From assembly GCA_963702425.1 (NCBI GenBank), contig CAVPCQ010000019.1, positions 96,001-160,000 of the forward strand: 64,000 nucleotides of DNA. The letters are read 5' to 3'. Position 1 is the stretch's first letter; the number at the start of each line of letters is the position of its first letter. The notes under the pieces are model-generated. The model was not told the DNA's origin, did not search any database, and saw nothing but the letters and a program-made list of their open reading frames with translations. A program made the position numbers and the translations under genes. Shown here piece by piece: positions 9,079 through 61,993 of the stretch. Origin of the DNA: an uncultured Acidobacteriota bacterium. GTDB taxonomy: Bacteria > Acidobacteriota > Polarisedimenticolia > J045.

Positions 9079-10014
9079 GTGCGAGCGGAACAGGCGGTCG
9101 CGAGGATGCTGGTCGTGACCCTCCTGGCGGCGTTTTCGCCGGGTCTGGGTGCATACGCCGGGCCGTTCGACCCGAAGGCAGCCGCACCGGTCGACGCGAA
9201 GCCGGCCGCCCCGGCTGAGCCCCGCCCGTACTGGCGACAGAACCTCTTCCGCAGGATCTGGTTCGACCAGCGCCCCCTCCTTCTCGACTGGTGGCCCGCG
9301 GAGTTCGCGCGGCCCAACTTCTCCGTCCCGCTCGGCTTCACGACCCTCGTCGCGCTGACCTCGGACTGGGGCGACACCGGCGGGATCGACGTCACGATCG
9401 AGCGCACCATCCACGGTCAGTGCGGGACCCGCTGCACGAGCGCGAGCAACGCGCTGACGACCCTTGGCAACTGGCCGGTGCTCGCCGCGGGGATGGGGAT
9501 CGCGTGGTGGGCCGGAGCGCGCGCGGGCAACGAGCGCCTCGCCGAAGCGTCGAGCCTCGGTCTCGAAGCGCTGGCGACGACGGGCCTCTGGAACGAGGCG
9601 CTCAAGCAGCTCACGGCGCGCGCCCGTCCGCCCGGCGGGTCGCTCGGCGCCTTCTGGAACTACGGCGGGGCGCCGCCCGGGCAGGAGCTCGGCTCGTTCC
9701 CATCCGGCCACGCCCAGACCGCCTTCACCGTCGCGGCGGTCTACGCGACGGTCTATCGCGACCGGCCGTGGGTCGCGTGGCTGGCGTACGGCACGGCGTC
9801 GATGATCTCGCTCTCGCGGGTCTCGCTGGGTCGGCACTTCCCGACCGACGTCATCGTCGGCGGGATGCTCGGCGCGAGCGTCGGACGCTTCACCGTCGCC
9901 CGGGCCCACGGCGACCCGCACGCCGGCCGGGCGCTGCGCGGGATGCAGGGCTGGCAGCCGTCCATCGATCTCGGGCGCGGGACCTACGCGGTCTACTACG
10001 GGCGGACTTGGTAG
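9079..10014 (+). CDS. PAP2-family phosphatase, exported/membrane
   Basis: K..TARARP, SFPSGH, SRVSLGRHFPTDV motifs; N-terminal signal-like segment. Confidence 0.9.
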   Translation: MRAEQAVARMLVVTLLAAFSPGLGAYAGPFDPKAAAPVDAKPAAPAEPRPYWRQNLFRRIWFDQRPLLLDWWPAEFARPNFSVPLGFTTLVALTSDWGDTGGIDVTIERTIHGQCGTRCTSASNALTTLGNWPVLAAGMGIAWWAGARAGNERLAEASSLGLEALATTGLWNEALKQLTARARPPGGSLGAFWNYGGAPPGQELGSFPSGHAQTAFTVAAVYATVYRDRPWVAWLAYGTASMISLSRVSLGRHFPTDVIVGGMLGASVGRFTVARAHGDPHAGRALRGMQGWQPSIDLGRGTYAVYYGRTW

Positions 10015-10288
10015 ACCGAGAGCCGCGCGGCCGGCTCGCGCCGAGCGCGGCTTCGGGCGTCCCCGAGGCGGTGCCGGACGGAGCATGCTTCGGGCAGCGG
10101 CGTGCCGCGGGGGGCCCTCCCCGGAGGGGCGACGCGAACCCGTCCCCGCGAAGCAGAGCGAACCAGTCGGGACGAAGCGGGCAGAGCAAGCCCGAAGAAA
10201 ATGAACAAAAAAGGATAAATAAAGACACTTACGGTTAATCGTGATCAACTCCTCTTGAGAACCCTGGACCCGCGTCGCAGGTTTCCAC

Positions 10289-10317
10289 TTGCACATCGGT
10301 CCAAAGCCCCGTATCAA
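10289..10317 (+). promoter_or_regulatory. Possible sigma-70-type promoter of the peptide cassette
   Basis: TTGCAC-N17-TATCAA, preceded by an AT-rich tract at about 10195-10240. Confidence 0.3.
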
Positions 10318-10438
10318 TCTGTGGAAAGCCGCACCAGTACTGTTGATTACGGCGGCATAAGAGTTCGGTCAGGACGCGGCTGGCGTCTCACTTACGAGAC
10401 CGAGCCGAACCTGAGCGGGCTTCGGGAGGATCAAGACC

Positions 10439-10627
10439 ATGAGCGCCCCATCTCGGCTTCCTCGTCGCCCCTATCGTCGGCCGAGCGTGAAGACGCTTGA
10501 CACCCGGGCGCTTCTGGAGGCCCTCGGCCCTGCCCACTGCGACTACGGCCCCAGCCCCGAGAATCCCACCGGGGGTGGCCACGGCCACGGCAACGGCCAC
10601 GGCCACGGCCCCGGCCACGGTCACTAG
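10439..10627 (+). CDS. Putative RiPP precursor peptide (YxxP leader, Gly/His-rich tail)
   Basis: 62 aa; GGGAGGA RBS; leader PYRRPSVKTL; tail GGGHGHGNGHGHGPGHGH; directly upstream of kinase and PqqD genes. Confidence 0.7.
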   Translation: MSAPSRLPRRPYRRPSVKTLDTRALLEALGPAHCDYGPSPENPTGGGHGHGNGHGHGPGHGH

Positions 10628-10669
10628 GTCCCGCCGCACTCGGGGCCAGCCGCCCCGGCAGTGAGTTGA

Positions 10670-11771
10670 GTGCCAGCGCGACGTTTCCAGATCCTAGACG
10701 CCACGATCGAACTGCGCGGCCCCGCTGCGTCGGTCGAGCCGATTGCATACGCCTACCGCCGCTTCGCCGCGGACGAGTCCCTTCCCCCCGAAAGGGGAAC
10801 GGCGGCGGTTCCCGACGCCCCCCCATCCGTCAACGGCCGCCCGATCGGTCCGATCGACGGGTATGACCCCGCGCTGCAGCTCTACAGCGAGTTCCTCCTC
10901 GAGACGCGCCGCCTCATTACTTCGACGGCGCTGATTCACGGTGCCAGTCTTGTCGACTCGTCCGGAGGGGCGACGCTCATCGCTGCGCCGTCCGCTCACG
11001 GAAAGACCTCGCTCGCGCTGGCCCTGCTCGCGCGGGGCCAGCGCCTGCTCAGCGACGACTACTCGCCGCTGGACCTCCGGACCGGCGACGTCCGCCCCTT
11101 CCCGCGCGCCGTGGCGGTCGATCCCGGACGGCAGCGCGCCCCTTCCCGCAGTCTTCCGCGCCGCCGCGGCGCGGCCGGGTACTCCGCGGCTCCTGGGGAA
11201 GGTGCTGCTCGACATCGGGGAGGTCCTGGGGGAGGACGCGCTGCAGCGCGAGCCGGCCCCGCTGCGTCGCGTGGTGCTGTTGACCGGCGACACGGCGCAT
11301 GCCCTCGATCGCGAGCCGCGGGTCGACCTGCGGGTCGGCGCCCTCGCCGAGCACTCCCTCCGCCTCGAGCGGGCGCTGGAGGGGGTTCCCGGCGTCGCCG
11401 TGGCGGACCGCGGGACGCGGGGCGCGATGCGCATCTGGATCCTCTCGCTCGACCTCTCGCACCGCCCCTCCGAGCCCCTTTCCCGCCTCTTCGACGACCC
11501 GGCGATCGTCTTCGTCGAGCGCTGGGGCGAGGCGACGCCGGCGTTCGAAGGGGAGCCGGAGTCGCGCCCGATCCCGCGCTCCGAAGCGGCACTGCTGCTG
11601 GCCCGCGAGATGCTCAACCGCCGCGAGGGCGGGGGGGCGCTGGCGGCCTACGGCGGTCGGCTCGCCCCGCTCGTCCTCGACCTGGCCGGGGCGCTGCGGG
11701 ATGCCGTCTGCTTCTCGGTCAAGCCCGGGGGGGACCTTGACCGGACCGCTGCGATGACCGAGAACTTGTAG
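10670..11771 (+). CDS. HPr-kinase-like P-loop kinase; one frameshift near 11120
   Basis: IHGASL, APSAHGKT, LLSDD, PFPRAV in ORF 10670; continues in ORF 10941..11771 (IPDGSAPLP...REMLNR). Confidence 0.78.
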
Positions 11772-11802
11772 GGAAGACGCGAAGGACCGCGACGAGGCTC
11801 CC

Positions 11803-12078
11803 ATGCCGGCCCAGACCGACCGCCCGCGCGCCCAGGATCTCCTGACGGGGCGGGACCTCAAGGACGAGTACGTTCTTCTCGGGCGCACCGGGGACCGGCT
11901 CCACGTGCTCAACGACACGGCGCGGGAGATCTTCCTGCTCTGCGACGGCCGCCGGACGATCGCCGAGATCGTGTGCACGATCACCGAGCGGTTCGAGGTC
12001 ACGGAAGAGCAGGCCGCCGACGACGTGCGGGCCACGCTCTCGGAGTTCGTCGCGCTCGGGATCGTCACGCTCGACTGA
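11803..12078 (+). CDS. PqqD family protein / stand-alone RiPP recognition element
   Basis: 91 aa; LHVLNDTAREIFLLCDGRRTIAEIV..ITERFEV..A.DDV..L..LGIV signature. Confidence 0.92.
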   Translation: MPAQTDRPRAQDLLTGRDLKDEYVLLGRTGDRLHVLNDTAREIFLLCDGRRTIAEIVCTITERFEVTEEQAADDVRATLSEFVALGIVTLD

Positions 12079-12138
12079 GCGGGCCGAGGCGAGCGTCGTG
12101 CTGTGCGACGAATCGTCGCCAGCGCTTCGCGCGGGGCG

Positions 12139-12363
12139 CTACGGCCTTCTTGCTCCCGACACGTCCCGGATTTCTCTCAACAGCAGGGCCACGACGAAGA
12201 GCAGGGCGACCACCGAGAACTCCAAGAGTCGACTAGGTGCGTACCTTCCCTGAAGCACCGTGTAACCGACAATGTTCGCCAACTTCTCCCAGACCGCCAG
12301 ACCTGCGAGCAGGAACGCCCCAACGAACAGGACGCGGCAAAGGACGCTCGTCAGCAGTTTCAT
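12139..12363 (-). CDS. Small two-TM membrane protein, unknown function
   Basis: 74 aa, two hydrophobic segments, GGAGG RBS. Confidence 0.65.
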   Translation of the reverse strand: MKLLTSVLCRVLFVGAFLLAGLAVWEKLANIVGYTVLQGRYAPSRLLEFSVVALLFVVALLLREIRDVSGARRP

Positions 12364-12374
12364 CGTTCCGCCTC

Positions 12375-12662
12375 CTAGCCCCGGGGAATCAGGCTGGCGT
12401 TCCACAGTTCGCCGGTCGCCACGCTGAACACGACCATGCGGACATTCAGGCTATCGTCCTGGAACCACAGTTGCACCAGATCCGGATACTGCGGCGCACT
12501 TGAAACCCCCACGAGCCGCCCCCACTCCGGCGGGATCGAAGCGGGGGTGCGGAGTACCTCCTTCGCAACCCCCGCCTTTGGAGCAGTCGGCAGTTTCTGG
12601 CACGCCGGCATCAGCGCGACGAGAGCCAGGATCAGCAGGACCCCAACGATTCGACGTGACAT
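12375..12662 (-). CDS. Small lipoprotein, unknown function
   Basis: Signal MSRRIVGVLLILALVALMPA-C; GGAGGA RBS. Confidence 0.7.
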   Translation of the reverse strand: MSRRIVGVLLILALVALMPACQKLPTAPKAGVAKEVLRTPASIPPEWGRLVGVSSAPQYPDLVQLWFQDDSLNVRMVVFSVATGELWNASLIPRG

Positions 12663-12788: not shown

Positions 12789-13790
12789 TCAACCCCCGGC
12801 GCGATCACCTCGGTGGGGCCCGCAGCAGCGGGCGCACGATCCCCGCTGGCCGCCGGTGGCAGGTCGGGTGTCGGTCGCCCGTCCCTCGTCCGCCTTGCGA
12901 GTCAAAGAGATGCCGAAGCCGATGATGCCCCGCGTCCCTTCGCGCCAGCGGACGGTCTGCCAGGTGGAGTTCGACAGCGTGGCCGTGAGCACGGCGAGGG
13001 GCATCGGCTGATGCTCCGGCGTGCGCCGCACCCGGCGCGGTGGCCGCCCCGGACCGGCCGCGCGAGGGCGCGGCGGCAGCGGCGTCTGCCGGGGGGCCAG
13101 ACGGAGATGTCGGCCGTGACGTCTGCGGCATAGGACAAGCCGCACGCCGTCAGCGCCTCGCGGAACGCCGTCGTCGCACCGTACCCCGCGTCCGCGACGA
13201 CGGGGGCGTGCGGCAGATCGTCGGCCAACAGGTCGTCCAGCAGGCTGATCGCCAGCGACCACTTGGTCTGGAACCGAACCGCTATCAGAGTCCCCGCCGC
13301 TTCACGCCGCGTTGGCGGCCGAAATCGCCACGGCGACGTGGCAGTTGTCCTGCTCGCCGAGCGGGCCGCAGTACTGCCGCGCGCCCCCCACCGAAAACTG
13401 ACCCCTCTTCGGCATCCCGGTGTCGTCGATGAGCCACGCTTCCACCGGAGCGTGCCGCACGAGTTGGGTCAGCGCGTGATCCCGTGCCACGCGGATCACG
13501 TCGTTCGCCTCTCCGGCCTCGTTGGCGACGAATTGGTGCAAGGACTGGTGCTGCGCCGCTGCCCGCCGCGGATCGAGCCGGGCCGCCATCCGCTCCACGC
13601 TCTTCCACTCGCCGGTCAGGAGCAGCCCCATCAGGTACCCGCGCAGGGGATCGTGCCGGTCGGCATGGCCGAGCACCGCACGGACCCGCGACACGAACTC
13701 CGCCAAGCGGCCTTACGGCGGCGCAGCAGCCCGGCTCATGCGCCGATGCTCGCACAGGCGCGCTCAACCCGTCACCTTCTGACGCAGTAG
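12789..13790 (-). mobile_element. Degraded IS701-family element
   Basis: KSVERMAARL, IDDTGMPKRG..SVG.ARQYCGPLG..DNC, ADAGYG, WQTVRWREGTRG spread over several frames; end CTACTGCGTCAGA at 13790. Confidence 0.85.
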
Positions 13791-43328: not shown

Positions 43329-44678
43329 TTACCGTCGTTCCATTTCGTTGATAACGAATCGATGCTTGCCCGCCGTCGTGCGCTCGATCGCTGGTACCGC
43401 ACGGAGCGTCAGGTGCACACCTGGGCCGGTCAGCGCTGATAGTCGCGGTTGCAACTCGACGGCCAAGGCGTCGAGGCGCTCGCGGACCCCCGTCTCTTGG
43501 GCCGGTACGATGAGCAGGTCGATCTGGTCGGGTCTCGACTGCCGGAACTGGAAGTGACGAATCCAATCCTGACCATACAGCAGGCGTACGAAAAAAGTCG
43601 GGAAGATCTTACGTCCGTCGGGCGCGCGGAAAAAGTCGCCTTGGCGGCCGACGCCCATCTCCATCAGGGGGTAGCCGCGCCCGCAAGGGCAGCGGCCCGA
43701 TTTCGCGGCGCCGAGATCGCCCAGGTCGTAGCGAAGCAGCGGCTGTGCCGGGTTGTGCAGCGGCGTCACCACGATGTGCCGCGCGCTGCTCTCACCCTCG
43801 GGATCTCCGACGAACTCCACCCGATTGAGGCCTGAGAACACATGCATGTTTCCTGCAGGACACTCGCAGGAGACACCAGGCGCTTCGCGACAGCCGTATT
43901 GATCGAAAACCGGACAACCGAAGGCCCGGGAAATGACAGCCCGGAACTCGGGCAGCAGAGGTTCTGCGGAGCAGTAGACCCCTTTGAGTCCCGTTGGCTT
44001 CAGGCCGCGCGCCAGCACCCAGCGCGCGAAATCGGCCGCGACGGAAGCGTAGGCGTAGACGACCGTGGGACGGAAGCGCTCCATTGTCTGCCACCACGAT
44101 TCGATCGCGCGATCGTCGTATGCGTAGACCGGGAGGTTGACCTGACCGCGGAGCCTTCGCTGCCAGGCACGCCAGCCGCCGGTACCAGGGACGTAGTTGC
44201 CTTGGCCGCCCCACAGGCCGAGACAGACCTCGCCCTGCCTCCAGCCACACCACGTGAAGCAGTGGATCAGGAACGCTTCAGCGACATCGAAGAGCAGGTC
44301 CGAAACCAGGAAGTTGACAGGCTGTCCCGTCGATCCACCACTAGACATCTTGCGAGCCGCCGTGGAGGATTCATTCTCCGGCTTGAGATCATCAAAACAG
44401 CTGCGCAAGGTCTCGCGCGTCAGCACGGGCAGTCTCTCCCAGTCGGTGGGGAAGTGCATCGTACGCGGATCGAGACCGAGCTCACGGAAGAGGTGCCTGT
44501 AGTAGGGCACTTCGACCGCCGCGTAGCTGGCGACGCGCCGTGCCAGCTCGTCGCCGTAGGTGGATAACTGGTCCTCCGGCCACCATTGGTGCGTCTCCAG
44601 GTTCGCGACCAGGCGAGCGACCCGGGGTTGCCTCCACCGGAAGACCATGGTCGACAGCTGTTCGAAGCTGTGACTCAT
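43329..44678 (-). CDS. CapK/phenylacetate-CoA ligase-like adenylating enzyme
   Basis: VPYYR, SSGGSTGQP, DQYGCRE, PLLRYDLGD, AGKHRFVI. Confidence 0.9.
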   Translation of the reverse strand: MSHSFEQLSTMVFRWRQPRVARLVANLETHQWWPEDQLSTYGDELARRVASYAAVEVPYYRHLFRELGLDPRTMHFPTDWERLPVLTRETLRSCFDDLKPENESSTAARKMSSGGSTGQPVNFLVSDLLFDVAEAFLIHCFTWCGWRQGEVCLGLWGGQGNYVPGTGGWRAWQRRLRGQVNLPVYAYDDRAIESWWQTMERFRPTVVYAYASVAADFARWVLARGLKPTGLKGVYCSAEPLLPEFRAVISRAFGCPVFDQYGCREAPGVSCECPAGNMHVFSGLNRVEFVGDPEGESSARHIVVTPLHNPAQPLLRYDLGDLGAAKSGRCPCGRGYPLMEMGVGRQGDFFRAPDGRKIFPTFFVRLLYGQDWIRHFQFRQSRPDQIDLLIVPAQETGVRERLDALAVELQPRLSALTGPGVHLTLRAVPAIERTTAGKHRFVINEMERR

Positions 44679-45856
44679 CTCATCGACTCCCGGCCCTGCG
44701 CGGCGCCAGACGTTCCCCGCTCGTACAGCTCCTCGTAGCGGCGGACAACCTGGTCGAGCGCAAACCCCTCCAGCACCGAATTCCGCGCATGGCGTGAAAG
44801 CCGTGCGCGAAGCTCCCCGTCGTCGAGCAGACGCGCCAAAGCGGCGGCAAGCGCCGGAGGATCCCCCGGAGGAACCAGCAGACCGTCTTCGCCATCGCGG
44901 ACGACCTCTGAGATCGCTCCGACCCGGGTGGCCGCGACCGGCAGCCCCGAAGCCATCGCTTCGAGGACGACGATCGGCAGTCCCTCTCGCCGCGAGGACA
45001 GCACGAAGACATCCGCGGCGCGCAGCAGCTCAGGCACGTCGGTGCGACTGCCACAGAATGCCACGCAATCCGACAGGCCGCGACCGGCCGCTTCGCGCGC
45101 CAGAACCTCACGCAGTTCCCCGTCACCGACCAAGAGCAGATCGACCGCGCGGCCCGCGGAGCGTAGAAGCGCCAACGCGGAGAACAACGAGGGGTAGTCC
45201 TTCGCTTCCACGAGCCTTCCCACGCTGATCAGACGTCCTCCGGCGGGACGCCCTGCTGCCCCGGACGACCCACGCGAGCCCCCGTCGGCCGGGTGGAACA
45301 CCGACGTATCCACACCGTTCGGGATGACCCGGACAGCTTTCGTCGGCACCCGCAGCTCGCGGACGAAGTACTCTTTCAGCTCGTGCGAAACCGTGACCAG
45401 AAAGTCGGCGTGGCGCGCGGCATGACGACAACCGTCCTGCAATCGCAACGAACGGGAGATCGAGTACTTTGCGTGCTCCGTGCATCCCACGATCGGAATG
45501 CGAGCCCAGCGAGCCGCGCGCCAGATGTAGGTGTAGAGGGGGATGTGGTGGATGTGAAGAACGTCCAGACGGAGCCAGCGCAGGCGCGCCGCGAGATAGA
45601 GTGGGTTCGCGAACCGGCGCACGCCGCAGTTGTGCAGCTGGTAGAAACGCAGTGAGCGTTGTGTGAGGTAGTCCGGTAGCGGCCCAGGCCCCGGGAACAT
45701 CATCAGAATGCAGGACTCGAACCGAGACCGATCGAGGCGCCGGCAGATCTCGGCCGCGGCCGTTTCGGAGCCCCCCAGATTCTCGCTGTATACAAGGTGA
45801 GCCACCCGACATTTCCGGCGCGGCGGGCCAATTGCATTCGGGTCCGCAGACATCAC
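44675..45856 (-). CDS. GT4 glycosyltransferase
   Basis: IPNGVD, VGRL, SSRREGLPIVVLEAMASG. Confidence 0.93.
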   Translation of the reverse strand: MMSADPNAIGPPRRKCRVAHLVYSENLGGSETAAAEICRRLDRSRFESCILMMFPGPGPLPDYLTQRSLRFYQLHNCGVRRFANPLYLAARLRWLRLDVLHIHHIPLYTYIWRAARWARIPIVGCTEHAKYSISRSLRLQDGCRHAARHADFLVTVSHELKEYFVRELRVPTKAVRVIPNGVDTSVFHPADGGSRGSSGAAGRPAGGRLISVGRLVEAKDYPSLFSALALLRSAGRAVDLLLVGDGELREVLAREAAGRGLSDCVAFCGSRTDVPELLRAADVFVLSSRREGLPIVVLEAMASGLPVAATRVGAISEVVRDGEDGLLVPPGDPPALAAALARLLDDGELRARLSRHARNSVLEGFALDQVVRRYEELYERGTSGAAQGRESMR

Positions 45857-45899
45857 TCCGTCCGTCTGTCCAGCGCGAGTATCTCCTCGCCGAACCGTT

Positions 45900-46553
45900 T
45901 CAGCTCGGCGTCCCCGGCGGTGGAGAGCCGGGTCCAGCGCTCTCCCTCGCGGCGACCGACGGGGCCGCGTCGAGCGAGACCTTGCGGGCCGGGTTGCCCA
46001 TCACGGTGATGTCATCCACCACGGGACGCTGCACCACGCTCCCGGCGCCGACGGTGCAGTTGCAGCCCACATCGGCCATGATCACCGCATCCTGCCCGAT
46101 CCATGAGTTCCGGCCGATCCGGATCGTTTCGAACTGCTCGCCGACCTCATTGCCCCGCGAACGCTGCTCGGGGCGACCGTGCTGGTACTTGCCGGAGAGC
46201 ACCGAGACACGGGCACCGAAGAGCACATCCTGCCCGATCTGGGAGTAGCCGATTATGGAAAACGCGCCGACCACGGTCCTCGGGCCAATCGACACGTTGC
46301 GATGGGCCAGCATGGTGCCGAAGTTCAGCACCGCGTCCGGCGACACGTCGACGCAGCTGGACCAATAGTATGCCGCACGGAGGTAGACACCGAGGGGCGT
46401 CGGCACGAGACAGAGCAACTCCTTGCATGCGCCGAAAACCCGTTCTGTCTCGGGACCCAGCACGAGCTTCTCGATCCAGGTCAGCAGAACCAGCGGTGAC
46501 AAGATCGACCAAGCCAGGCCGAACAGGATCCGCTTCGAGATAGTCCGCAACAC
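45900..46553 (-). CDS. Hexapeptide-repeat O-acyltransferase
   Basis: IRIGRNSWIG..VGAGSVV..GNPAR; AGGAGG RBS before GTG. Confidence 0.88.
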   Translation of the reverse strand: MLRTISKRILFGLAWSILSPLVLLTWIEKLVLGPETERVFGACKELLCLVPTPLGVYLRAAYYWSSCVDVSPDAVLNFGTMLAHRNVSIGPRTVVGAFSIIGYSQIGQDVLFGARVSVLSGKYQHGRPEQRSRGNEVGEQFETIRIGRNSWIGQDAVIMADVGCNCTVGAGSVVQRPVVDDITVMGNPARKVSLDAAPSVAARESAGPGSPPPGTPS

Positions 46554-46587
46554 TAGATCGAGCCTCCTGGACCGCGGCAAGCGCCTG

Positions 46588-47499
46588 TCATGATTGCGGC
46601 CCGGGAGAGCCGGCACGCAAAGTCGCGGCCAGGAATCGCACGAACTGCGGGGCGATGATCCGGCGGCCCCGCTCGTCGAGGTGGGCCCCATCGCCCGTGT
46701 AGGCCGGGGAGAGGGCGATCACCGTCCGCCCCTTTGCGGACGTTGATTCGAGCACGCCGTCAGGACCGGTGGCCTCGATTTTGGCCAGATCGAAAAGCGG
46801 TTCGCGGCCGTCGTACTCCCGCCTGAGGAGATCGTTGTAGGCTTCCCGCTGGACGTTGAAGTCCTGCGTCGTCGGCCGGCCGAGAGCGCGCTTGGCGGCG
46901 GTGCGCCACCAGGGCTCGCGGGACTCAAGCGGCACCGTGACATGGAACAAGCGCAGATTGGGATACCGGCTCCGGAGATCCGAGGCCATCTCTCTGTAGC
47001 GCCGGAACAACGCCTCGACATCGGTGTCCGGCCTGAAGTCAGCGTAACAGAGCTTCAGGCCGGCCAGCTCGAAGGCCGAAGCCCGCCCCGCATCAAGCCG
47101 GTGAGCGAAGTCAGCCATCTTGCCTGCCGGATCACCGTTGCGACCGACCGTGAAGTGGTAGACGCCCGCGGCCGCGCTCGGAGCCGACGGCTCCAGGCCG
47201 ATCAGCGCAGGCGGAGCCTGCGAGGTCGGTCGAATCTCCTCGATTCCGCGGAGAATGTTGCTCCCCACCGACTGGTGTCCGAACAAGACTCGCCGGCCGG
47301 CGAGATCCTCCCAGATCGCAGTCGGGAGGGCCTCGGTCGCCTCCGCGTGTCCATCAGTACGCACAGCGGTCCCCTTATCGCAACCTGCAGTCAGCGCTAC
47401 CGCAAGCAGCATCAGGAAGCTCAGACACGTGGCGCCCGCGCCAGTGCGCCCGCACGCGACCGCAGCGGAGAATGCTGGGGTACGAGAACGTCTCTCCAT
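46588..47499 (-). CDS. SGNH-like exported protein/lipoprotein
   Basis: LTAGC lipobox, FGHQSVG, KLCYAD, DGAHL. Confidence 0.65.
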   Translation of the reverse strand: MERRSRTPAFSAAVACGRTGAGATCLSFLMLLAVALTAGCDKGTAVRTDGHAEATEALPTAIWEDLAGRRVLFGHQSVGSNILRGIEEIRPTSQAPPALIGLEPSAPSAAAGVYHFTVGRNGDPAGKMADFAHRLDAGRASAFELAGLKLCYADFRPDTDVEALFRRYREMASDLRSRYPNLRLFHVTVPLESREPWWRTAAKRALGRPTTQDFNVQREAYNDLLRREYDGREPLFDLAKIEATGPDGVLESTSAKGRTVIALSPAYTGDGAHLDERGRRIIAPQFVRFLAATLRAGSPGPQS

Positions 47500-47529
47500 A
47501 GTCTGGCGATCCTACCTGCCGGAACGCGA

Positions 47530-48348
47530 TCACACAAGCCGGGGTGGTGGCTCGGCCACGGACCGGGTGAGGATGCGCTCGAACAACGCGTCGGTCGCCG
47601 ACACGTCGTCGTGCACTCCGATCCGCGGAAGCAGCGCGGGGAATGAGGCTGGCCCCCACCATCCTCCTCCGACGGTGACGCTGGCGGGGAAGATCCGCTG
47701 CGCCAAGTCGACGGCCGCTCGGTTGATGCGACCGAGCGGGTAGGCGAAGAACTCGCAGGGTCGCCCGGTCCATGACTCCACCGCTTCGCGCGACAGCAGC
47801 ATCTCCTGCTCGGCCTGGGCAACGTCGACGAGGTCCAGCTTGGCGTGCGACACAGTGTGCGCCCCGAACTCGATGCCGTCGCGGGCCAGCGCACGCACGT
47901 CGTCTACTCGCAGGAACTCACCACGCCGGTTCGTCCCTTCCAGTGTCCAGTCGCGTACCAGGAAGATCGTGGCACGGACACCGTGCTCCTCGAGGACCGG
48001 CCAGGCAAGCGTGAGATTGTCGCGCCATCCGTCATCGAAGGTCAGGACGACCACAGGCGGATCTTCCGGTGCCGGGGGAGCGGTGCGCAATTCACCCAAG
48101 GTGACGACCTTCCAACGTCGAGTGAGCCAGGCCACCTGGCGGGAGAAGGAAGACTGCCGAACGAACATCCCGGGGTAGATTCCCTCGCATGAAGCGTCGT
48201 CAGCGAGAATGCGGTGGTACATGAGTATCGCCGCTCGACCGCGCTGGCGGGCCAGGACGCGGCCGTTGGCTCCACTGGCATGCGACCAGGAAGCCGCCGC
48301 CCGGCGGGCGAGGCGGTGAAAGCGGTCGCGCAGTGCCGGACGATTCAC
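47530..48348 (-). CDS. Polysaccharide deacetylase
   Basis: ILMYHR, LTFDDGWRDN, GAHTVSH, FAYP. Confidence 0.9.
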   Translation of the reverse strand: MNRPALRDRFHRLARRAAASWSHASGANGRVLARQRGRAAILMYHRILADDASCEGIYPGMFVRQSSFSRQVAWLTRRWKVVTLGELRTAPPAPEDPPVVVLTFDDGWRDNLTLAWPVLEEHGVRATIFLVRDWTLEGTNRRGEFLRVDDVRALARDGIEFGAHTVSHAKLDLVDVAQAEQEMLLSREAVESWTGRPCEFFAYPLGRINRAAVDLAQRIFPASVTVGGGWWGPASFPALLPRIGVHDDVSATDALFERILTRSVAEPPPRLV

Positions 48349-49514
48349 CGCCGGGACTCCGTGGCCGCGCGCTCGACGGCTCGCCCGACCCGCTCCAACT
48401 CCACCGCCGTCAGCGTCGGGTAGACGGGCAACGTCAGCAGCCTGGCCGCCACCGACTCGGCGCCAGGAAAGCCGTCGCTGTGATTGACGAAGTGCGGGCG
48501 CAGAGCGGGAATCTGGCAGATCGTTCCCGGGTACATCGCCGACGCAGCGACACCCTGACGGTGCAGCGCCTTCAGCGCGACGTCCCGACTCTGCCGATCG
48601 GGCGCCAACACCGGAAACCGCAACGGCCCGGGGGCGCGCGCCGGTGCGGGGACGACCCAACCGCGGCACCCGGCCACCCGCGCGGCGAGCGCGGAGGCCG
48701 CGATCGTGCGCCGCGCGATCCAAGAGGAAAGCTGCGGGAAGCAGCGGCTACCCAGTTCGCGTTGCCAGGTCCAGAACGGTCGCGACATGTCAAACGCCGG
48801 CTGATACACCGTGGCGCCGAGTCCCAGAAAGGGCAGTGCCTCGGGGAGCCGGTAGAGCGCCGGACGGGCGAGCATCGCCGTCACCGCCAGGGCCAGGGCA
48901 TCCGACCAGCCGCCCCGCCGACTGCGAGGTGTGGTTACCTCCCACTCCGCGGGGTGGACCAGAGCACCTCCTCCGCCCAGCGGGAGTGGCTTGCCCCGCC
49001 CGAACGACCAGAGGCGGGCGCTGATCGCCGGTACGGGCGCGGCGTCGGGCCAAGCCTGAGCGGCATCCTCGATGATCGGCGCTCTTGGATCGGATGCCGC
49101 AAGGCGGGCCGCAAGTGCAGGCAACTCGGGGTCCGGCGCGAAGAGATGGACCAGCAGAATCCCGGCCGCCCTGGAGAGATCGAGCCCTTCGAGGTGCCGG
49201 GCGCTCATCGCGAGTGTCTGTGGATCGATGTCGTACGCTCGCACCTTCAGGCCTGCTCGCACGACAGCGGCGGGGACGCTCCAACAGGTGTAGGCCGGGA
49301 CCACGACCTCCGTTCGGCCTTCCCGTCGCAGTGCATGAAGCGCGGCGGCGAGCGCGGCACGACCGCTGCCGAATAGAGCGACTGCGCTGTTCGCCGTGCC
49401 ACGAGCCAGTTCATCCGTCCAATCGGGACGCGATCCCGCACCTGTCGCTATCGCGCTCGTGGCGACCTGCGCGGGCCCGAAGGGAAGGGCGTTGGGGGGG
49501 ATCAGCCGGATCAT
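48345..49514 (-). CDS. DegT/DnrJ-type PLP-dependent aminotransferase family
   Basis: GSGRAAL, PAYTC, IEDAAQA, SFGRGKPL, LLTLP. Confidence 0.85.
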   Translation of the reverse strand: MIRLIPPNALPFGPAQVATSAIATGAGSRPDWTDELARGTANSAVALFGSGRAALAAALHALRREGRTEVVVPAYTCWSVPAAVVRAGLKVRAYDIDPQTLAMSARHLEGLDLSRAAGILLVHLFAPDPELPALAARLAASDPRAPIIEDAAQAWPDAAPVPAISARLWSFGRGKPLPLGGGGALVHPAEWEVTTPRSRRGGWSDALALAVTAMLARPALYRLPEALPFLGLGATVYQPAFDMSRPFWTWQRELGSRCFPQLSSWIARRTIAASALAARVAGCRGWVVPAPARAPGPLRFPVLAPDRQSRDVALKALHRQGVAASAMYPGTICQIPALRPHFVNHSDGFPGAESVAARLLTLPVYPTLTAVELERVGRAVERAATESRR

Positions 49515-50860
49515 GAAGCTCGCGGTGTCGCCGTGGGCGCCGGCGGCGGTTGGTCGTTCTTCGCTGAGAGGCCTTCCACGCTGGCCAGCAGGGCGATGAG
49601 GATCCACAGCATGGGGTAGTACAGCGTGGAAATGAAGGCTCCGGCCACCAGTACGGCGAAGATCCCCGCCAGACACGCCGTCGCGAGCAATGCGGGCTGC
49701 ATCCCGGCAATCTCTCGGGCGGCCCTCCGGCGCAAGCGGGCCGCCGCGCGCACACACGATGCGATCAGCCCCGAGAAGAGAAGCGTACCGACCACCCCCT
49801 GCTCGGACAGAAGGGTGAAGAACAGGGAATGCGCGGCGCGGCCCCACATGTGCTCGCCCCGGGCCTTTCGCATGACGTCCTCGTACAGCGGAGCCTGGAT
49901 GCCGTAGTTGCGGGTACCGACGCCGGTGACCGGGTGGTCGAGGAACATCCGCCACGCCAGACCCCACGAATAGAGCCTCGCGTCCCCGGTATCTCCTTCC
50001 TGATCTGCTGTCTCAATCGAGCGAATCTCCGTCCAGTACTGTTCGGGGGCGGCGAACCACAGCGCGAGGGCGGCGGCGCCGACAGCCAACGCAATTCTCC
50101 CCCGGTGGGGACCTGTCACCAGCATGAACACACCGAGCGCCGCCAGTCCAACGAAGCCGCCGCGCGAGAGGGAGGAGACCACTGCAGCCAGCAGCAGCCC
50201 GATCGATCCTACCAAGAGCAGGCGGACGAGCGGACGGCGGTGCGTCCCAATCAGATAGATGGCGACTCCCATCGCAGCGTTGAAGGCCAGGGCCAAGTCA
50301 TTCTCGTCCTCCATCCAGGCACCGAGACCCCTACCTTGATGCAACACGGCATAGATGGCCATCGGCACGTGCAGGAACACGTAGGTTGTCAGCAACAGCC
50401 GTACTCCCGCCAAGTCCATCGGAAGAACGGCCAGCGGAATGATGCAGCCGACCGTCATGATCGCGAAATCCTCGAAACCCCAGAACGCAAACGCGCGGTT
50501 CAGCGCCCACGGAACGTTCCATGCCATCACACCGACCAGCGCCAACATGTACCACATCTGTCGCGGAAGCGGTCTCTTGCCGCCCAACAGGACCGCACCC
50601 GCTCCCCACAGGGCGGCGAGCACGCCCAGCCTCAACGCGCCCAGGGCGGGGACCCAAGCCATTGGCCTTCCGAGTTCGACCGTCAGGTAGTAGAGGCAAG
50701 GCGCCAACCTGCCGATCCCGGTGGAGGTGTCCGAGCCTGATTTCGGGAACCGCGGACTCTGCGTCGGACCGGCAGCTCCCGCGCCCCCCGCGTGACGCGC
50801 TTCTGATGGTTGAGATGCTCGCACGAACGGGGTCCGCGTCACCGTGCGGTCGGGGACCAC
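49511..50860 (-). CDS. O-antigen ligase/Wzy polymerase family
   Basis: ENDLA, SLSRGG, R..W..HPVTGVG, AHSLFFTLLSEQG. Confidence 0.88.
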   Translation of the reverse strand: MVPDRTVTRTPFVRASQPSEARHAGGAGAAGPTQSPRFPKSGSDTSTGIGRLAPCLYYLTVELGRPMAWVPALGALRLGVLAALWGAGAVLLGGKRPLPRQMWYMLALVGVMAWNVPWALNRAFAFWGFEDFAIMTVGCIIPLAVLPMDLAGVRLLLTTYVFLHVPMAIYAVLHQGRGLGAWMEDENDLALAFNAAMGVAIYLIGTHRRPLVRLLLVGSIGLLLAAVVSSLSRGGFVGLAALGVFMLVTGPHRGRIALAVGAAALALWFAAPEQYWTEIRSIETADQEGDTGDARLYSWGLAWRMFLDHPVTGVGTRNYGIQAPLYEDVMRKARGEHMWGRAAHSLFFTLLSEQGVVGTLLFSGLIASCVRAAARLRRRAAREIAGMQPALLATACLAGIFAVLVAGAFISTLYYPMLWILIALLASVEGLSAKNDQPPPAPTATPRAS

Positions 50861-51981
50861 GCCACTACGCGCTCACCGCGCAGAAAGCGGTACCACGCCA
50901 CGATGATCGATAGGTTGACCATGACGAAATAGTACCAGGCTCGGCCCAGGGGCAGGCGCTGCAACGTAGGCAGCGCGGGAGTGGCGAGCGCCAGCGTGTA
51001 GGCGGCAAGCTGCGTCAAGAACAGTGCGAGAAACCAGGCCGACCCTGCCGCAAGCCAGGCCGACGTCGCCAGGAACAGCAGCATCGCCCATGGAACGGTC
51101 CAGCGCGCGAGCTTGTGCGAAAAAAGCTGCCAAGCGAAGAGACCGTAGCGAAACACATTGAGCAAATCAACCGCAGAGAAGAACGCGGTCAAGCCGCGTA
51201 CCACGGTGCGGACCTTGCGCTCGAATTCGGAGCCGCGGGCCGACAGATCCGTGTAGCAGCCGACCGCCTCCTCGTCGATCACGGCGCGCAGTCCGGATCG
51301 TACCGAAGCGAACACGGTGCAGAAGTCGCTCGGCAGGCGGTCGGAAAAGCCGTGACATGCGCTTCGTCGCGCTGCGAAGAAGGACCCGCTCAGCCCGACC
51401 AGAGATCCGGCGGCGGACTCCAGCCGGCGCAGCAACATTTCGTAGCGCACATAAAGCCCCTCTGCCGCGGGCCGGCCTAGCGGGTCGATCAAGCGGTCGG
51501 TGGAGCTGACGCAACCGACCTCCGGGTCGGCGAAGCTGCGGACGATCGTGGCAAGCCCGTGCCGTTCAAGCACGGTGCTGACATCGGTGAACACGAGGAC
51601 CTCTCCCGAAGCACGCGTGAGGGCCTGCAGCTGGGCCATCTCCTTGCCCCCACGCGAGGAGAGCCGGACCAGCAGCACGCCGGCGGCAGCGAACTCCTCC
51701 TCGACGATCTGGGCGGTCCCATCCGTAGACGCGTCGTCCGCGACCAGAATCTCGAGTCGGTCGCGTGGGTAGTGTTGTTCGAGCAGATTACCGAGTTTCT
51801 GCCGAAGCTGCGCGGCCCCATTGTGCACTGCCACGATGACGCTCAGCCGCGGAAAGATATCGGCGCGCTGCGGCCTTCTTTGGCGCATGCTGGTCAGCAG
51901 CCAGAGCACCAACGGGTATCCGGCATAGGCGTAGCCGATCCACAACGCCGCCAGTGCCAGTAGCGCAATGCCCGTTCGCAT
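50839..51981 (-). CDS. GT2 glycosyltransferase, membrane-bound
   Basis: YAGYP, DDASTDGT, GK, VFTD, ERKVR, SHKLARW. Confidence 0.9.
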   Translation of the reverse strand: MRTGIALLALAALWIGYAYAGYPLVLWLLTSMRQRRPQRADIFPRLSVIVAVHNGAAQLRQKLGNLLEQHYPRDRLEILVADDASTDGTAQIVEEEFAAAGVLLVRLSSRGGKEMAQLQALTRASGEVLVFTDVSTVLERHGLATIVRSFADPEVGCVSSTDRLIDPLGRPAAEGLYVRYEMLLRRLESAAGSLVGLSGSFFAARRSACHGFSDRLPSDFCTVFASVRSGLRAVIDEEAVGCYTDLSARGSEFERKVRTVVRGLTAFFSAVDLLNVFRYGLFAWQLFSHKLARWTVPWAMLLFLATSAWLAAGSAWFLALFLTQLAAYTLALATPALPTLQRLPLGRAWYYFVMVNLSIIVAWYRFLRGERVVAWSPTAR

Positions 51982-52069
51982 CACCCCACCGATCTCGGCA
52001 TCGGCCGGCCGAGCGCGGAATCGTGTTGGCGACGCGGAGGACCCGGGGCCGGCGCGTTCCGCCCGGTGC

Positions 52070-52888
52070 TCAATCACCCTCCTGCGCCCGACTACGGTAG
52101 TAATCTCCGTATCTGCTGTCCGCGAGGGTCGAACCATCGACCAGGTTGGGTCGAACGTCGTTGAGCACCGTCCCAATCAGCGGCAGCCCTTCCAGCGCCG
52201 TGAGGGCTTCCTCGAACAATGAGCGAGGGGTATGTTCCGAGCGTACTACCAACAGGATGGCGTCGGCCACAGCGCCCAGCAGAATCGCATCCTGAAACGG
52301 CATCAACGGAGGGGTGTCGATCACGATCTGGTCGAAGGTCCTGCGCAACTCATCAATCATCTCCCGCATCTGTTGTCCGCCGAAGTGGATGGTGGGGTCC
52401 GCCAGTGGGGATCCGGCACCGAGCACGGCAAGAGTGGAATCCGGGAGCGTCACCCAAGCCTGGCCGAGCGGCAGCCCGGCCGACAGAACGTCAGCGAGAC
52501 CGACGCTGAGCGGAGGAACGGTCCAGCGGGTGGGGCCCGGCTTGCGCAGGTCCGCGTCGATCAGCAGCGTTCGAGTTCCCAGCTTCATTGAGCAGGCCAA
52601 AGCGAGATTGAGCGCAACCAGCGACTTCCCGTCACCGCTCGTCGGGCTCGTGACCATGACGACGGCGCGCGATGACGCCCCTCCCAGCCCGATGATCGAC
52701 CGCAAGCGGCGGAACTGCTCCGCCGCCGGCGACGCCGGCCCCGCCTCGACAGCGATAGAAACACCCTTGCGAAGACGATGGCCCGGTGGCGTCGGCGGCG
52801 TTTCAGATCCACGGCGCTCGCGCGGACTAGCCGTCGACTCCACGCCGGAGCCGGGGTCGGGATGCGGTGAGTCTCGGTCCGACAGCAT
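52070..52888 (-). CDS. CpsD/CapB BY-kinase (split Wzc cytoplasmic domain)
   Basis: AEQFRRLR, TSPTSGDGKS, IDADLRKP, IDTPP, Tyr cluster YGDYY. Confidence 0.92.
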   Translation of the reverse strand: MLSDRDSPHPDPGSGVESTASPRERRGSETPPTPPGHRLRKGVSIAVEAGPASPAAEQFRRLRSIIGLGGASSRAVVMVTSPTSGDGKSLVALNLALACSMKLGTRTLLIDADLRKPGPTRWTVPPLSVGLADVLSAGLPLGQAWVTLPDSTLAVLGAGSPLADPTIHFGGQQMREMIDELRRTFDQIVIDTPPLMPFQDAILLGAVADAILLVVRSEHTPRSLFEEALTALEGLPLIGTVLNDVRPNLVDGSTLADSRYGDYYRSRAQEGD

Positions 52889-52901
52889 GGCAGGCACACT
52901 C

Positions 52902-54422
52902 TCAGCGCGGGAAAAGGACCACGGCGGCGGCGAATAGGAGCGCGGAGACGAGGGAGGCTGTCAGGTTCCAGAGGTAGCGGCGCAACCGCCGGGCCCGCAT
53001 CTCGGGGGTCATGATCCGTCCGATCACCACGAGCACCGGGACGGGTGCCAAGAGCCGGAGGCCGGTCCGCGAGAAGATCTTCGGGGCCAGGAGGGCCGAA
53101 AAGACGATCGGCGCGACCATCAGCGCACACCCTGTTGCGACCCCGAGCAGCAAGACGATCTGCGGCACCGGTCTGATCGGACGCAGCGGCGGGACGGCCC
53201 TCTCCATGACCTGGAACTGCTCACCCAGGCGGACTTCCTCGACCTTCTCCGAGCCCCGGGCCGATTCGAGCATGCCTTGATAATACTTGAACTTTTCCTT
53301 CAGCACGTCGTAGCCCTTGGTCAGCTCGGCGAGCTGCTGTTCCACGTTTGGCGTATTCTCGATGCGCCGCTGGTACAGCGCGATGTCCGCGCGAATCCGT
53401 GACCTATCCTCAGTCAGGCGTGCGATCTCACGCTCCGCGGACCGAAGTTGAGCTGTGAGTGAAGCGCCGACGCCGCTTGTTGCAGCGGAGTCGCTTGGGG
53501 CCGCGTCGCCGGCTGCAGCGATCGAATCCTGCAACTCGGCGATCTGGCGTTGGTGGGCGCGGACGGCCGGGTGCGCGTCAGAATAGCGAGACCGCAGCGC
53601 GTCCAACTCGGTGCGTAGACGGGCCAGCTGTGCAGCAGGCGATTCCGCTGTGCCGGAGCCCGCCGGAACAGCGGGCGCTTCCGCCAGTGCCCGAAGCTGC
53701 GCCGCCAGCAGATCCCGGCGATCCACCGCCTGAGCCAACTCACGCTCGTTGTTCTCGAGTCCGTTCTGGCGGCCCTCCAGGAGTCGGATGTTCGCTTCCA
53801 TCTGATCAACGGAATCGTAGAGGTGCCGACCTTTGAACTCGGCGATCGTCTGCTCTTGCCGCTCCAATTCCGCGCGGGTCTCGTCGGCCAGGGACACCAT
53901 GACCGAAGTGGTCGTGCGCGCTGCGGCGGAGCGCGCACGCAGGTTCTCCTCGATGAATAGCTCGCCGAGCGTGTTGACAAGCCGGGCGGTTCGCTCGGGA
54001 TCGCTGTCACGGTAGGTCAGGGCGAACACGCCGGTGCCGCGCTGGGCGTCGAAACGGATGATCTCCGCCGTCAGCCGTCCACGGATCTCGTCGAAGAGCT
54101 CCAGCCGCTCTGCTTCTTCCGCAGACTTGCCGAATACATCCGCCGCGAGCCGGACCAGATAAGGGCGGCTGAGTACCGCCTCTCGTAGCGAGGCGAGCCG
54201 CATGCCCATGTCGTCGGTGACCTGGCTTCGGACCATTTGAAGCGGGATCTGGGATGGGGCCACGAAGATCGTGGTCGTCGCCTCGTAAGTCTTGGGGGAA
54301 ACCCGCAGCAGTGCCGTAGCACCGAGCAGGCCGATCGCTGCACCGAAGACCAGCGTCCACCAGGACACCAGGATTCGATCGGCGATCTCGAGGATTGGCG
54401 CCAGTTTGGGCGTGACCATCAT
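52902..54422 (-). CDS. Polysaccharide chain-length determinant (GumC/Wzc-N)
   Basis: Two TM helices around a coiled coil; PKTYEA, RYSDAHP, P.VEQQLAEL, PLRPIRP. Confidence 0.9.
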   Translation of the reverse strand: MMVTPKLAPILEIADRILVSWWTLVFGAAIGLLGATALLRVSPKTYEATTTIFVAPSQIPLQMVRSQVTDDMGMRLASLREAVLSRPYLVRLAADVFGKSAEEAERLELFDEIRGRLTAEIIRFDAQRGTGVFALTYRDSDPERTARLVNTLGELFIEENLRARSAAARTTTSVMVSLADETRAELERQEQTIAEFKGRHLYDSVDQMEANIRLLEGRQNGLENNERELAQAVDRRDLLAAQLRALAEAPAVPAGSGTAESPAAQLARLRTELDALRSRYSDAHPAVRAHQRQIAELQDSIAAAGDAAPSDSAATSGVGASLTAQLRSAEREIARLTEDRSRIRADIALYQRRIENTPNVEQQLAELTKGYDVLKEKFKYYQGMLESARGSEKVEEVRLGEQFQVMERAVPPLRPIRPVPQIVLLLGVATGCALMVAPIVFSALLAPKIFSRTGLRLLAPVPVLVVIGRIMTPEMRARRLRRYLWNLTASLVSALLFAAAVVLFPR

Positions 54423-54700
54423 GCGTGGGACTTCGCTTCTCCTCGACCCTTTGGTGGCCGGTCCGGCGCTTCGTACAATAGGGCAAACTACCGGCGCGGG
54501 CCAGCGCATGCGGCCGGAAGGCGCAGTGGGGGGCGGCCCGGCGAACGCCCGTCTCACCGGCTCCGGAATGGCGACCCAGCGCCGCGGGACAGCAGCCCTG
54601 CCGAGGATCGCTCCGAGCAGGCGCGAATCACGCGGTACGCGACGACTGAGAGGGCCCGCGAGGCGGTGTACAATGCCATTCGCGCTCTTCACCGCGCCGC

Positions 54701-55768: not shown

Positions 55769-55802
55769 AGCGGGGACGCAGTGATCGCGTCCGCGATGAA
55801 CG

Positions 55803-57017: not shown

Positions 57018-57233
57018 CTGGTTTGTCCGTCGATTCTCGGTTCCTCCAATCCCCTCAGCGCAACCGCTCAGGGCTGGCTCCCGAGCAGCGGCGCGCCCGG
57101 GAACTCTGCCGTATTGTCCACGAAGTCACCCGGGCGGAACGGGAACGACGACGGGCCGGTCCGGCAATCGGACGCCAGGTATTGTGACCGTGCCCTTCAA
57201 GTACCTGGCGCTAGGGTGAGGGGGTCGGGGCGC

Positions 57234-58628: not shown

Positions 58629-58653
58629 TTCGCCGGCGCGGCGTCGAGCGTCC

Positions 58654-59883: not shown

Positions 59884-59888
59884 GCGCA

Positions 59889-61769: not shown

Positions 61770-61993
61770 GACGAGGTCCGCGGACGCGGGGTGATCCGAC
61801 CATTGGCCCGTTTCCCCTCCGGCGTGAGTCGAACGGCCCGGCAGGCTCAACGACACGACGCGGGCGCTCTTCTTGCCCTGCGACCGCCGCGGGACGATCC
61901 GCGAGATCGCGCGCGCGAGGATCGAGCGATTCAAGGTCACGGAACACCAGGCGCACGGCGACGCGCGGGCCACGCTGTCGAAGTCGGCCGCTC

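Follow-up and report, generated by a model that had tools for sequence, protein, structure and literature searches.

The closest described systems to the one reported here are the phosphorylated lasso peptide clusters (paeninodin, pseudomycoidin and Bsf), in which a small precursor with Y-x-x-P-x-(L/V) near its N-terminus is accompanied by a discrete PqqD-type protein (B1) acting as RiPP recognition element (RRE; RiPP, a peptide made on the ribosome and modified after translation), by an HprK-like kinase with a His/Lys/Asp/Asp set of residues and frequently by an NTP_transf_5 partner. According to two reports, these four residues are conserved in lasso precursor kinases and needed for catalysis (PMC9266682, PMC10368454), the B1 RRE accelerates phosphorylation of the precursor by its kinase (PMC10368454), and the kinase PsmK together with the nucleotidyltransferase-like PsmN phosphorylates and then glycosylates a Ser of the precursor (PMC9266682). 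We have analysed a locus that resembles these clusters in its precursor motif, RRE, kinase and likely NTP_transf_5 accessory and differs from them in the enzymes around it. It lies in a stretch of 64,000 nt (hereafter the window) from an uncultured Acidobacteriota bacterium (GTDB lineage Polarisedimenticolia; J045), positions 96,001 to 160,000 of contig CAVPCQ010000019.1 in assembly GCA_963702425.1, and consists of three genes, for a small peptide, an HprK-like kinase and a PqqD protein. We read this trio as a reduced member of an undescribed peptide-modification system, similar to a paeninodin-type lasso pathway minus the lasso-forming enzymes; its product is best read as an RRE-guided, kinase-modified, non-lasso peptide tied to exopolysaccharide (EPS) loci. 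We put the probability of this reading at about 0.55.

The peptide gene and its family

A sequence-only reading of the window had reported three linked co-oriented genes, the first of them a 62-residue open reading frame (ORF) with a ribosome-binding site, a PYRRPSV stretch and a Gly/His tail; we located all three and obtained the same reading of the ORF. The genes are closely spaced on the plus strand in the order peptide, kinase, PqqD, with a gap of 42 bases between the peptide-gene stop and the kinase start. The features are as follows.

10424..10429, plus strand: Shine-Dalgarno-like GGGAGG, 9 nt ahead of the peptide-gene ATG; relatives carry AAGGGAG at the same place
10439..10627, plus strand: peptide gene, 62 aa; N-terminal half with Y12-x-x-P15-x-V17 and an LLEALGPA block, C-terminal half variable
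10577..10624, plus strand: (GGCCAC) x 8 tandem repeat encoding the Gly/His tail (period 6, 8 copies, 88% matches)
10670..11125, plus strand: HprK-like P-loop kinase, N-terminal part, frame 2, with His, GK(T) and DD motifs
11123..11128, plus strand: kinase frameshift site, a single base at the junction of two frames
11127..11771, plus strand: kinase, C-terminal part, frame 0, without Pfam or NCBIfam model
11803..12078, plus strand: stand-alone PqqD-family protein (RRE), 91 aa; PF05402, 59.7 bits
61994..63238, minus strand: NTP_transf_5 (PF14907) gene, a likely accessory of the system; 136.8 bits, 50 kb from the trio

The 62-codon ORF is a real gene. A small ORF with a good ribosome-binding site stands directly upstream of a kinase-PqqD pair in all four same-genus genomes (G001–G004); the window peptide is 52–54% identical to these orthologues, with 28 invariant columns, among them Y12, P15, V17 and every position from L25 through C34. 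Over a block of 27 codons the four relatives, compared pairwise, differ at 0–8 codons, every one of them synonymously, and the window differs from the four by 10–12 synonymous and seven non-synonymous codons, mostly through third-position changes. The assignment as a gene follows from the ribosome-binding site, the conservation and this pattern of synonymous change, and the latter two rule out a spurious ORF at 10439–10627. Judged by its codon changes, the peptide reading frame is under purifying selection.

Beyond the conserved block the window peptide and its same-genus orthologues diverge completely. The window tail has six His in its last 15 residues, in Gly-His spacing, and the sequence-only reading had taken this tail for a feature of the system. 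That part of its proposal fails: the Gly/His tail is restricted to the window's lineage (all four same-genus orthologues end otherwise), in a database peptide 91% identical over 69% of the query the tail is Gly/Arg instead, and the window tail is encoded by a hexanucleotide repeat. The His tail is thereby ruled out as the defining feature; it is a lineage-specific repeat on a hypervariable C-terminus. The same evidence bears on the view that the product is a His-rich metal-binding peptide (a metallochaperone or metallophore), the kinase and PqqD being secondary. The number and spacing of the His residues fit that view, as do Gly/His/Arg repeat tails in two other families of the class (L075, L070) and a contig of run X5, about 92% identical to the window, that keeps the repeat, 6 nt shorter and in frame, so that its tail is two residues shorter. 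We nevertheless regard it as highly unlikely, given the missing tail in every same-genus orthologue, the Gly/Arg relative, the simple, slippage-prone nature of the repeat and the lack of any metal-handling gene nearby. The (GGCCAC)n repeat (window 10554–10620) also draws many short unrelated metagenome contigs, seen as a depth spike with loose ends, and depth over this interval is therefore uninformative on this organism.

The peptide family is widespread and has no functional name. A profile of the five peptides (window plus four same-genus) was run on 119 genomes of the class and gave weaker matches to the N-terminal half in 33 of them. Twenty-three family peptides were then gathered from 20 fetched loci and aligned. 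Y, P and G are invariant in the alignment, and E and A nearly so, in the pattern Y-x-x-P-x-(V/I)-x-(T/S), four variable residues, (I/L)(L/I)E-x-(L/I)-G-P-A. The GPA block is usually followed by an aromatic residue and a Gly a few positions on, then by 10–40 variable residues that in some members are Gly-rich with Arg or His and in others are Cys-rich or form short Pro/Phe-rich ends. The 23-member profile detected at least one copy in 56 of the 119 class genomes, with up to five copies in some; in a sample of the phylum, the family occurs in 27 of 401 genomes, 20 of the 27 belonging to the window's class. In a protein database 112 clusters were matched at E ≤ 1e-3, in which the only names given are 'hypothetical protein', the rest being unnamed; two records carry the names Acidobacteria bacterium Mor1 and Candidatus Polarisedimenticolia, by which the class can be placed. 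A narrower profile found members also in metagenome-assembled genomes (MAGs) labelled Dermatophilaceae, Anaerolineales and Chloroflexota, and the ESM Atlas yielded unnamed clusters only (scores 0.80–0.83), which serve as leads only. None of the 23 members matches a Pfam or NCBIfam model, and in a literature search, from whose reach subscription journals and supplements were excluded, neither the family nor the gene set was found described.

The window's own genome holds a second family member, on contig C3 (L008, 5548–6116), directly after another PqqD gene. It has 66 residues and a Gly/Ser/Arg-rich tail; there is no adjacent kinase, and divergent EPS export genes lie upstream (Wzz-like and Poly_export-like by similarity to locus L080). 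An additional kinase copy is found at the edge of contig C10 of the same genome. At another locus of the class (L074, G109:C391, 6876–7445, minus strand) three family members stand in tandem between large genes, each with a different Cys-rich tail, a multi-copy, variable-core pattern typical of RiPP precursors.

The kinase, the PqqD protein and described systems

The second gene had been called an HPr-like kinase, and both its motifs and its fold bear this out. The catalytic His, Gly-Lys and Asp-Asp columns are invariant in eight relatives and all are present in the N-terminal fragment of the window kinase; in the AlphaFold model made for the intact kinase of G004 (pLDDT 79.6), the fold corresponds to those of HprK/P catalytic domains (PDB 3tqf, 1kkm and 2qmh) and of ATP-dependent PEP carboxykinases. 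HprK/P and the kinase of the trio thus share the sequence of the P-loop core and the fold. They differ elsewhere: the window kinase scores 23.5 bits against Hpr_kinase_C (Pfam cut-off 33.3) with the match confined to the P-loop region, and 22.9 bits against TIGR00679 (cut-off 240); a kinase profile compared with solved structures matched 1ko7 over only about 75 aligned positions; neither Pfam nor NCBIfam has a model for the additional C-terminal domain of about 240 aa; and the substrate here would be a small peptide, not HPr. The C-terminal part of the window kinase has orthologues in all four same-genus genomes (46–47% identity) and weaker matches in 22 of 56 other relatives searched.

The frameshift that divides the window kinase, also recognised in the sequence-only reading, is real in this assembly and is missing from contigs of two other studies. 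Over about 1.1 kb these contigs (runs X1 and X2) depart from the window at 30 and 45 letters, and one base is missing from each, at 11128 in X1 and at 11126 in X2, which puts the kinase in one frame. The kinase is therefore intact in near relatives, and the frameshift of the window is either an assembly error or a strain-level lesion. Three same-genus orthologues (G001, G002 and G004) are likewise read in one frame, of 403–406 aa. The fourth (G003:C19:233662-234843) has an in-frame TGA, and stops occur in further kinase matches (one TAG in G116, one TAG and one TAA in G006); together with the window frameshift they hint at frequent breakage, or frequent mis-assembly, of the kinase in these MAGs.

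The third gene encodes, as had been proposed, a stand-alone RRE. The window PqqD protein scores 59.7 bits against PF05402 (cut-off 23.4), and a profile of nine relatives matches PqqD proteins of solved structure as well as TfuB1 and TbiB1, the B1 proteins of lasso pathways. A predicted complex of PqqD with the peptide scored 0.53, the best control 0.00, with at least 89% contact agreement between runs and a partner pLDDT of 55–56. Of 80 solved complexes in the benchmark 58 attained this mark, as did two of 110 mismatched pairs; at 0.60 or below, just seven of the 80 passed, plus both passing mismatches. As lasso RRE-leader complexes have already been solved, the pass may reflect likeness to these rather than binding. 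The RRE-leader model suggested in the sequence-only reading lends weak support to binding of the peptide N-terminal half by PqqD.

A lasso precursor is ruled out, as that reading had also held: cyclase, B2 peptidase and ring-forming core are all wanting. Within about 8 kb of the trio there is no gene for a cyclase, a peptidase or a radical SAM enzyme, again in line with the earlier account, and no Asn_synthase gene was found in the first 50 kb of the window. The genome has five Asn_synthase genes; the one in the window (59880–61769) has strong GATase_6/7 domains and is on that ground of the AsnB type, and none of the five reaches the cut-off of the macrolactam-cyclase model NF033561, the one model tried. 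The genome's single Transglut_core3 gene (B2, PF13471) is on contig C12, not near the trio. Scans of 11 extended loci with our own five HMMs and a few Pfam models, Asn_synthase not being among the targets, found beside the peptide only kinase, PqqD, C25, NTP_transf_5 and FN3-like families. In the peptide itself, the position expected for the lasso Thr(−2), 15 residues after the Tyr, holds a nearly invariant Glu; across the family there is neither a conserved acidic residue 7–9 positions after any candidate core start nor a conserved Thr/Ile/Val at a fixed −2 position.

What the locus does have in common with lasso clusters is the discrete B1-type RRE, here the window PqqD, and the HprK-like P-loop with His, Gly-Lys-Ser/Thr and Asp-Asp known from PadeK, ThcoK and BsfK, compared here through the described motif. 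The general gene-level traits of RiPPs (conserved recognition region, variable core, RRE, modifying enzyme) are all present. Unlike in the phosphorylated lasso clusters, the peptide is not accompanied by an Asn-synthase-like cyclase or a transglutaminase-like B2 and has no conserved ring-forming Asp/Glu or C-terminal Ser; its block has an invariant Glu (nearly so among the 23 aligned members) and a GPA motif; and its partners are a C25 peptidase and a secreted FN3-like protein in an EPS setting.

A lasso-like locus of a different make-up occurs on contig C12 of the window's own genome (L007, 7592–10928). It comprises a PqqD gene (NF033536, 76.2 bits, cut-off 80), an 81-codon precursor ORF whose leader reads Y-x-x-P-x-L-x-x-x-G-x-x-x-x-x-T and whose last residue is Ser, an HprK-like kinase, NTP_transf_5 and the genome's sole Transglut_core3 gene (B2), with glycosyltransferase, deacetylase and sulfotransferase-like genes downstream of the set; no Asn-synthase-like cyclase lies within the 18 kb fetched.

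The trio might be a relic, a paeninodin-type lasso cluster stripped of its B2 peptidase and cyclase and no longer giving any product. Its Y-x-x-P-x-V leader, kinase and B1-type PqqD are those of a phosphorylated lasso cluster, a lasso-like locus with a Ser-ending precursor is present in the same genome, and both the window frameshift and the stop in G003 could be signs of decay. The purifying selection on the peptide speaks against such decay, as do single-frame kinases in three same-genus genomes and on two environmental contigs, the lack of a conserved Asp/Glu at core positions 7–9 and of a fixed −2 Thr/Ile/Val, and the association of peptide and kinase in 55 of the 56 peptide-bearing genomes of the class, reaching into Chloroflexota. 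We find this explanation very hard to credit.

Two further systems share the pairing or the fold. The NCBIfam system HPr-rel-A combines a kinase (TIGR04352, HprK_rel_A) with a PqqD chaperone (TIGR04353), the same pairing as here, and its kinase model is the best-scoring one for the kinases of our loci. The scores remain low: 38.2 (window fragment), 43.5, 57.1 and 53.5 bits for the kinases, with a cut-off of 200, and 27.9 (window), 22.0, 36.2 (L076) and 34.5 bits for the PqqD proteins, with a cut-off of 35 that L076 alone reaches. No NCBIfam precursor model fits any of the 23 peptides. In PQQ biosynthesis PqqD has the same fold, and TIGR03859 is the top NCBIfam match of the window PqqD (42.9 bits, under the cut-off of 46); unlike in that pathway, no radical SAM PqqE and no PqqB/C stands beside it. 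The short PqqA of the pathway is, we presume, unlike the peptides of this family. Literature queries found no paper naming an 'HprK-related kinase', and those joining HPr kinase with PqqD or RRE gave lasso papers only; nothing was found to join PqqD, C25 peptidase and exopolysaccharide, to join HprK and PqqD, or to join RiPP recognition element, kinase, Acidobacteria and genome mining. Mentions of PF14907 in the literature are few and include phosphonate biosynthesis.

Linkage and the exopolysaccharide setting

Peptide and kinase go together in the class. A kinase profile built from eight sequences and searched in the 119 genomes matched 62 at E ≤ 1e-10, 56 of these strongly (E ≤ 1e-30). A match at E ≤ 1e-10 is present in 55 of the 56 peptide-bearing genomes; with the strong set, 54 genomes have both, two the peptide only, two the kinase only and 61 neither, and whole families are all-or-none for both. 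Coordinates place peptide and kinase on one strand, no more than about 500 nt apart, in 16 genomes; the peptide is directly ahead of the kinase in the window, in G001–G004 and at L072, L073, L076, L081, L085, L102–L105, L107 and L108. The sequence-only reading had named, as a check on its proposal, a conserved small ORF beside homologous kinase-PqqD pairs, and such an ORF is what the adjacency and the co-occurrence reveal.

The same reading had treated the trio as the entire system, which does not agree with the relatives, where an NTP_transf_5 gene, a C25 peptidase and a secreted FN3-like protein are added. The order in this full set is secreted protein, (sometimes PqqD), peptide, kinase, C25 protein, PqqD, NTP_transf_5; it is found at 11 loci (L072, L076, L081, L085, L103–L106 and L109–L111), and a Chloroflexota contig (L102) holds its core. 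The C25 protein has 1,170–1,540 aa and a Peptidase_C25 domain, and its best NCBIfam match is the T9SS sortase PorU (218 bits, cut-off 420). The upstream protein belongs to no Pfam family and has a signal-peptide-like N-terminus; its model (pLDDT 77.8) is all-beta, with three beta-sandwich domains that match FN3/Ig tandems only. As there is no enzyme fold in the model, the protein is unlikely to be a hidden modifying enzyme. One full-set locus continues with ATP-sulfurylase/APS kinase.

The bare trio of peptide, kinase and PqqD was seen only in the window's genus. In addition there are split forms: PqqD and peptide without kinase (contig C3 of the window's own genome; L080), or a kinase-PqqD pair whose genome encodes the peptide at a separate site, next to housekeeping genes. 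In six of the seven tested kinase-PqqD pairs without adjacent peptide, a gene for a Bac_transf priming sugar transferase is immediately upstream on the same strand. The resulting order Bac_transf, HprK-like kinase, PqqD on one strand is that of L018, L019, L114, L115, L117 and L118; at L115 and L117 a response regulator with an HTH_17 domain comes after the set.

The setting of the system is exopolysaccharide gene clusters: Wzz, Poly_export, AAA_31 chain-length and glycosyltransferase genes surround all three types of locus. In G004 the trio directly abuts an EPS cluster equivalent to that at 44–63 kb of the window, and NTP_transf_5 lies about 4 kb downstream of PqqD, versus 50 kb for its window counterpart. 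In the window a transposase remnant (13302–13706) and about 40 kb of other genes separate the trio from the EPS cluster, and the difference in spacing points to a rearrangement in the window lineage. The core idea of the sequence-only reading survives; this setting was new to it.

The window EPS cluster (44000–63300) contains an AAA_31 chain-length gene, glycosyltransferases, a FemAB-like acetyltransferase, the AsnB-type asparagine synthase and NTP_transf_5. A weak PqqD-like match of our own HMM at 61828–62400 was not confirmed by Pfam and was discarded. The trio is flanked by genes for a PAP2 phosphatase, a histidine kinase, a sigma-54 response regulator, a DDE_5 transposase remnant (the one at 13302–13706, on the minus strand), a carboxyltransferase, a polysaccharide deacetylase and a flippase, and by two small opposite-strand genes without assignment. 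The sigma-54 regulator lies upstream of the peptide gene, but no intact GG/GC sigma-54 promoter site occurs in the 424 nt ahead of that gene in the window, and a scan of the relatives gave poor, non-conserved matches only; consensus scans for sigma-70 promoters and terminators returned no sites, and Rfam gave no matches over 9800–12600. A look for RNA data turned up no listed run, which is neutral as to expression.

Another PqqD gene of the same genome (contig C6, L096, 3501–9841, minus strand) is associated with a radical SAM/SPASM enzyme and a 38-aa Cys-containing ORF with N-terminal Y-x-x-P-x-V; a protein with Peptidase_C25 and fn3 domains is encoded downstream. This arrangement suggests that several PqqD-dependent peptide systems of this organism make use of C25 peptidases.

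Proposed mechanism and its meaning

In the mechanism that we propose, PqqD would act as an RRE and bind the Y-x-x-P-x-V stretch in the N-terminal half of the peptide, as the predicted complex weakly suggests. The bound peptide would then be offered to the HprK-type kinase and, by analogy with the lasso precursor kinases, phosphorylated on a hydroxyl residue just past the GPA block; candidate acceptors in the window peptide are Y36, S39 and T44. In the fuller loci NTP_transf_5 probably decorates the phosphopeptide further, and the secreted PorU-like C25 peptidase and the FN3-like protein probably act outside the cell, steps to which gene linkage points. The sequence-only reading had named Tyr, Ser, Thr or His as acceptor, and the sequences do not single out any one residue. 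A Tyr occurs 3–6 residues after the GPA-type block (G-P-A, G-H-A or G-S-T) in 12 of the 13 distinct kinase-adjacent peptides, and in most of them a Ser or Thr follows 1–3 residues past it.

Several observations weigh against this reading. No Ser or Thr is conserved across the kinase-adjacent peptides, Tyr is the sole hydroxyl residue past the GPA block in two of them (the second copy at L081, and L107), and the peptide of L102 has no Tyr; in one report, the lasso kinase studied did not accept Tyr (PMC10368454). The kinase is broken in this assembly and in that of G003, by the frameshift and the stop described above. The kinases score below the cut-offs of every curated model, as do most of the PqqD proteins. 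The co-occurrence counts come from related genomes, so their independence is overstated, and many family members lie far from any kinase or PqqD, beside housekeeping genes. No exporter gene was recognised in the scanned loci. Finally, the conserved block extends past the usual RRE-binding motif to GPA-x-x-Y/F-G, which is unusual for a pure leader, and the conserved half could therefore itself be functional.

The last point leads to a different explanation, in which the product is a small cytoplasmic protein of the EPS pathway: its conserved N-terminal half would be the functional part, PqqD would serve it as chaperone or partner, and phosphorylation by the kinase would provide a switch, or else a handle such as a sugar acceptor, by which polysaccharide assembly is controlled or primed. 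Besides the length of the block and the lack of a recognised exporter, this would account for the Wzz, Poly_export and AAA_31 chain-length genes adjoining relatives of the trio, the EPS cluster that the G004 trio abuts, the Bac_transf gene directly ahead of six of the seven tested peptide-less pairs, and the low-complexity, Gly-rich tails with Arg or His. It accords less well with the occurrence of several copies whose C-termini are hypervariable and sometimes rich in Cys, a pattern typical of RiPP cores, or with the secreted C25 peptidase and FN3-like protein beside the peptide, which suggest an extracellular fate; our literature search found no precedent for a PqqD-bound regulatory peptide. 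We consider this explanation possible, if on balance unlikely, and retain the RRE-guided, kinase-modified peptide as the preferred reading.

A more far-reaching form of the preferred reading can be imagined, in which the phosphopeptide is the acceptor for transfer of a sugar or sugar-phosphate by NTP_transf_5 and/or Bac_transf. The outcome would be a peptide-linked exopolysaccharide, with the peptide as primer or as cap, processed or attached to the surface by the C25 and FN3-like proteins, and a new class of ribosomal peptide; this is speculative and, in our judgement, distinctly unlikely.

The only role described so far for HprK-like precursor kinases and their PqqD partners is the tailoring of lasso peptides. 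In the present loci this pair is retained with a conserved peptide family of its own and without lasso machinery, a combination that recurs in over 50 genomes of a single class of Acidobacteriota and, sporadically, in Chloroflexota and Actinomycetota. The EPS setting and the extra partners alter the likely nature of the product. The family offers a concrete, testable substrate for the curated, as yet unexplained pairings of HprK-related kinases with PqqD proteins, and it may reveal either a new type of phosphopeptide, perhaps glycosylated as well, or a link formed by a peptide in the assembly of exopolysaccharide.

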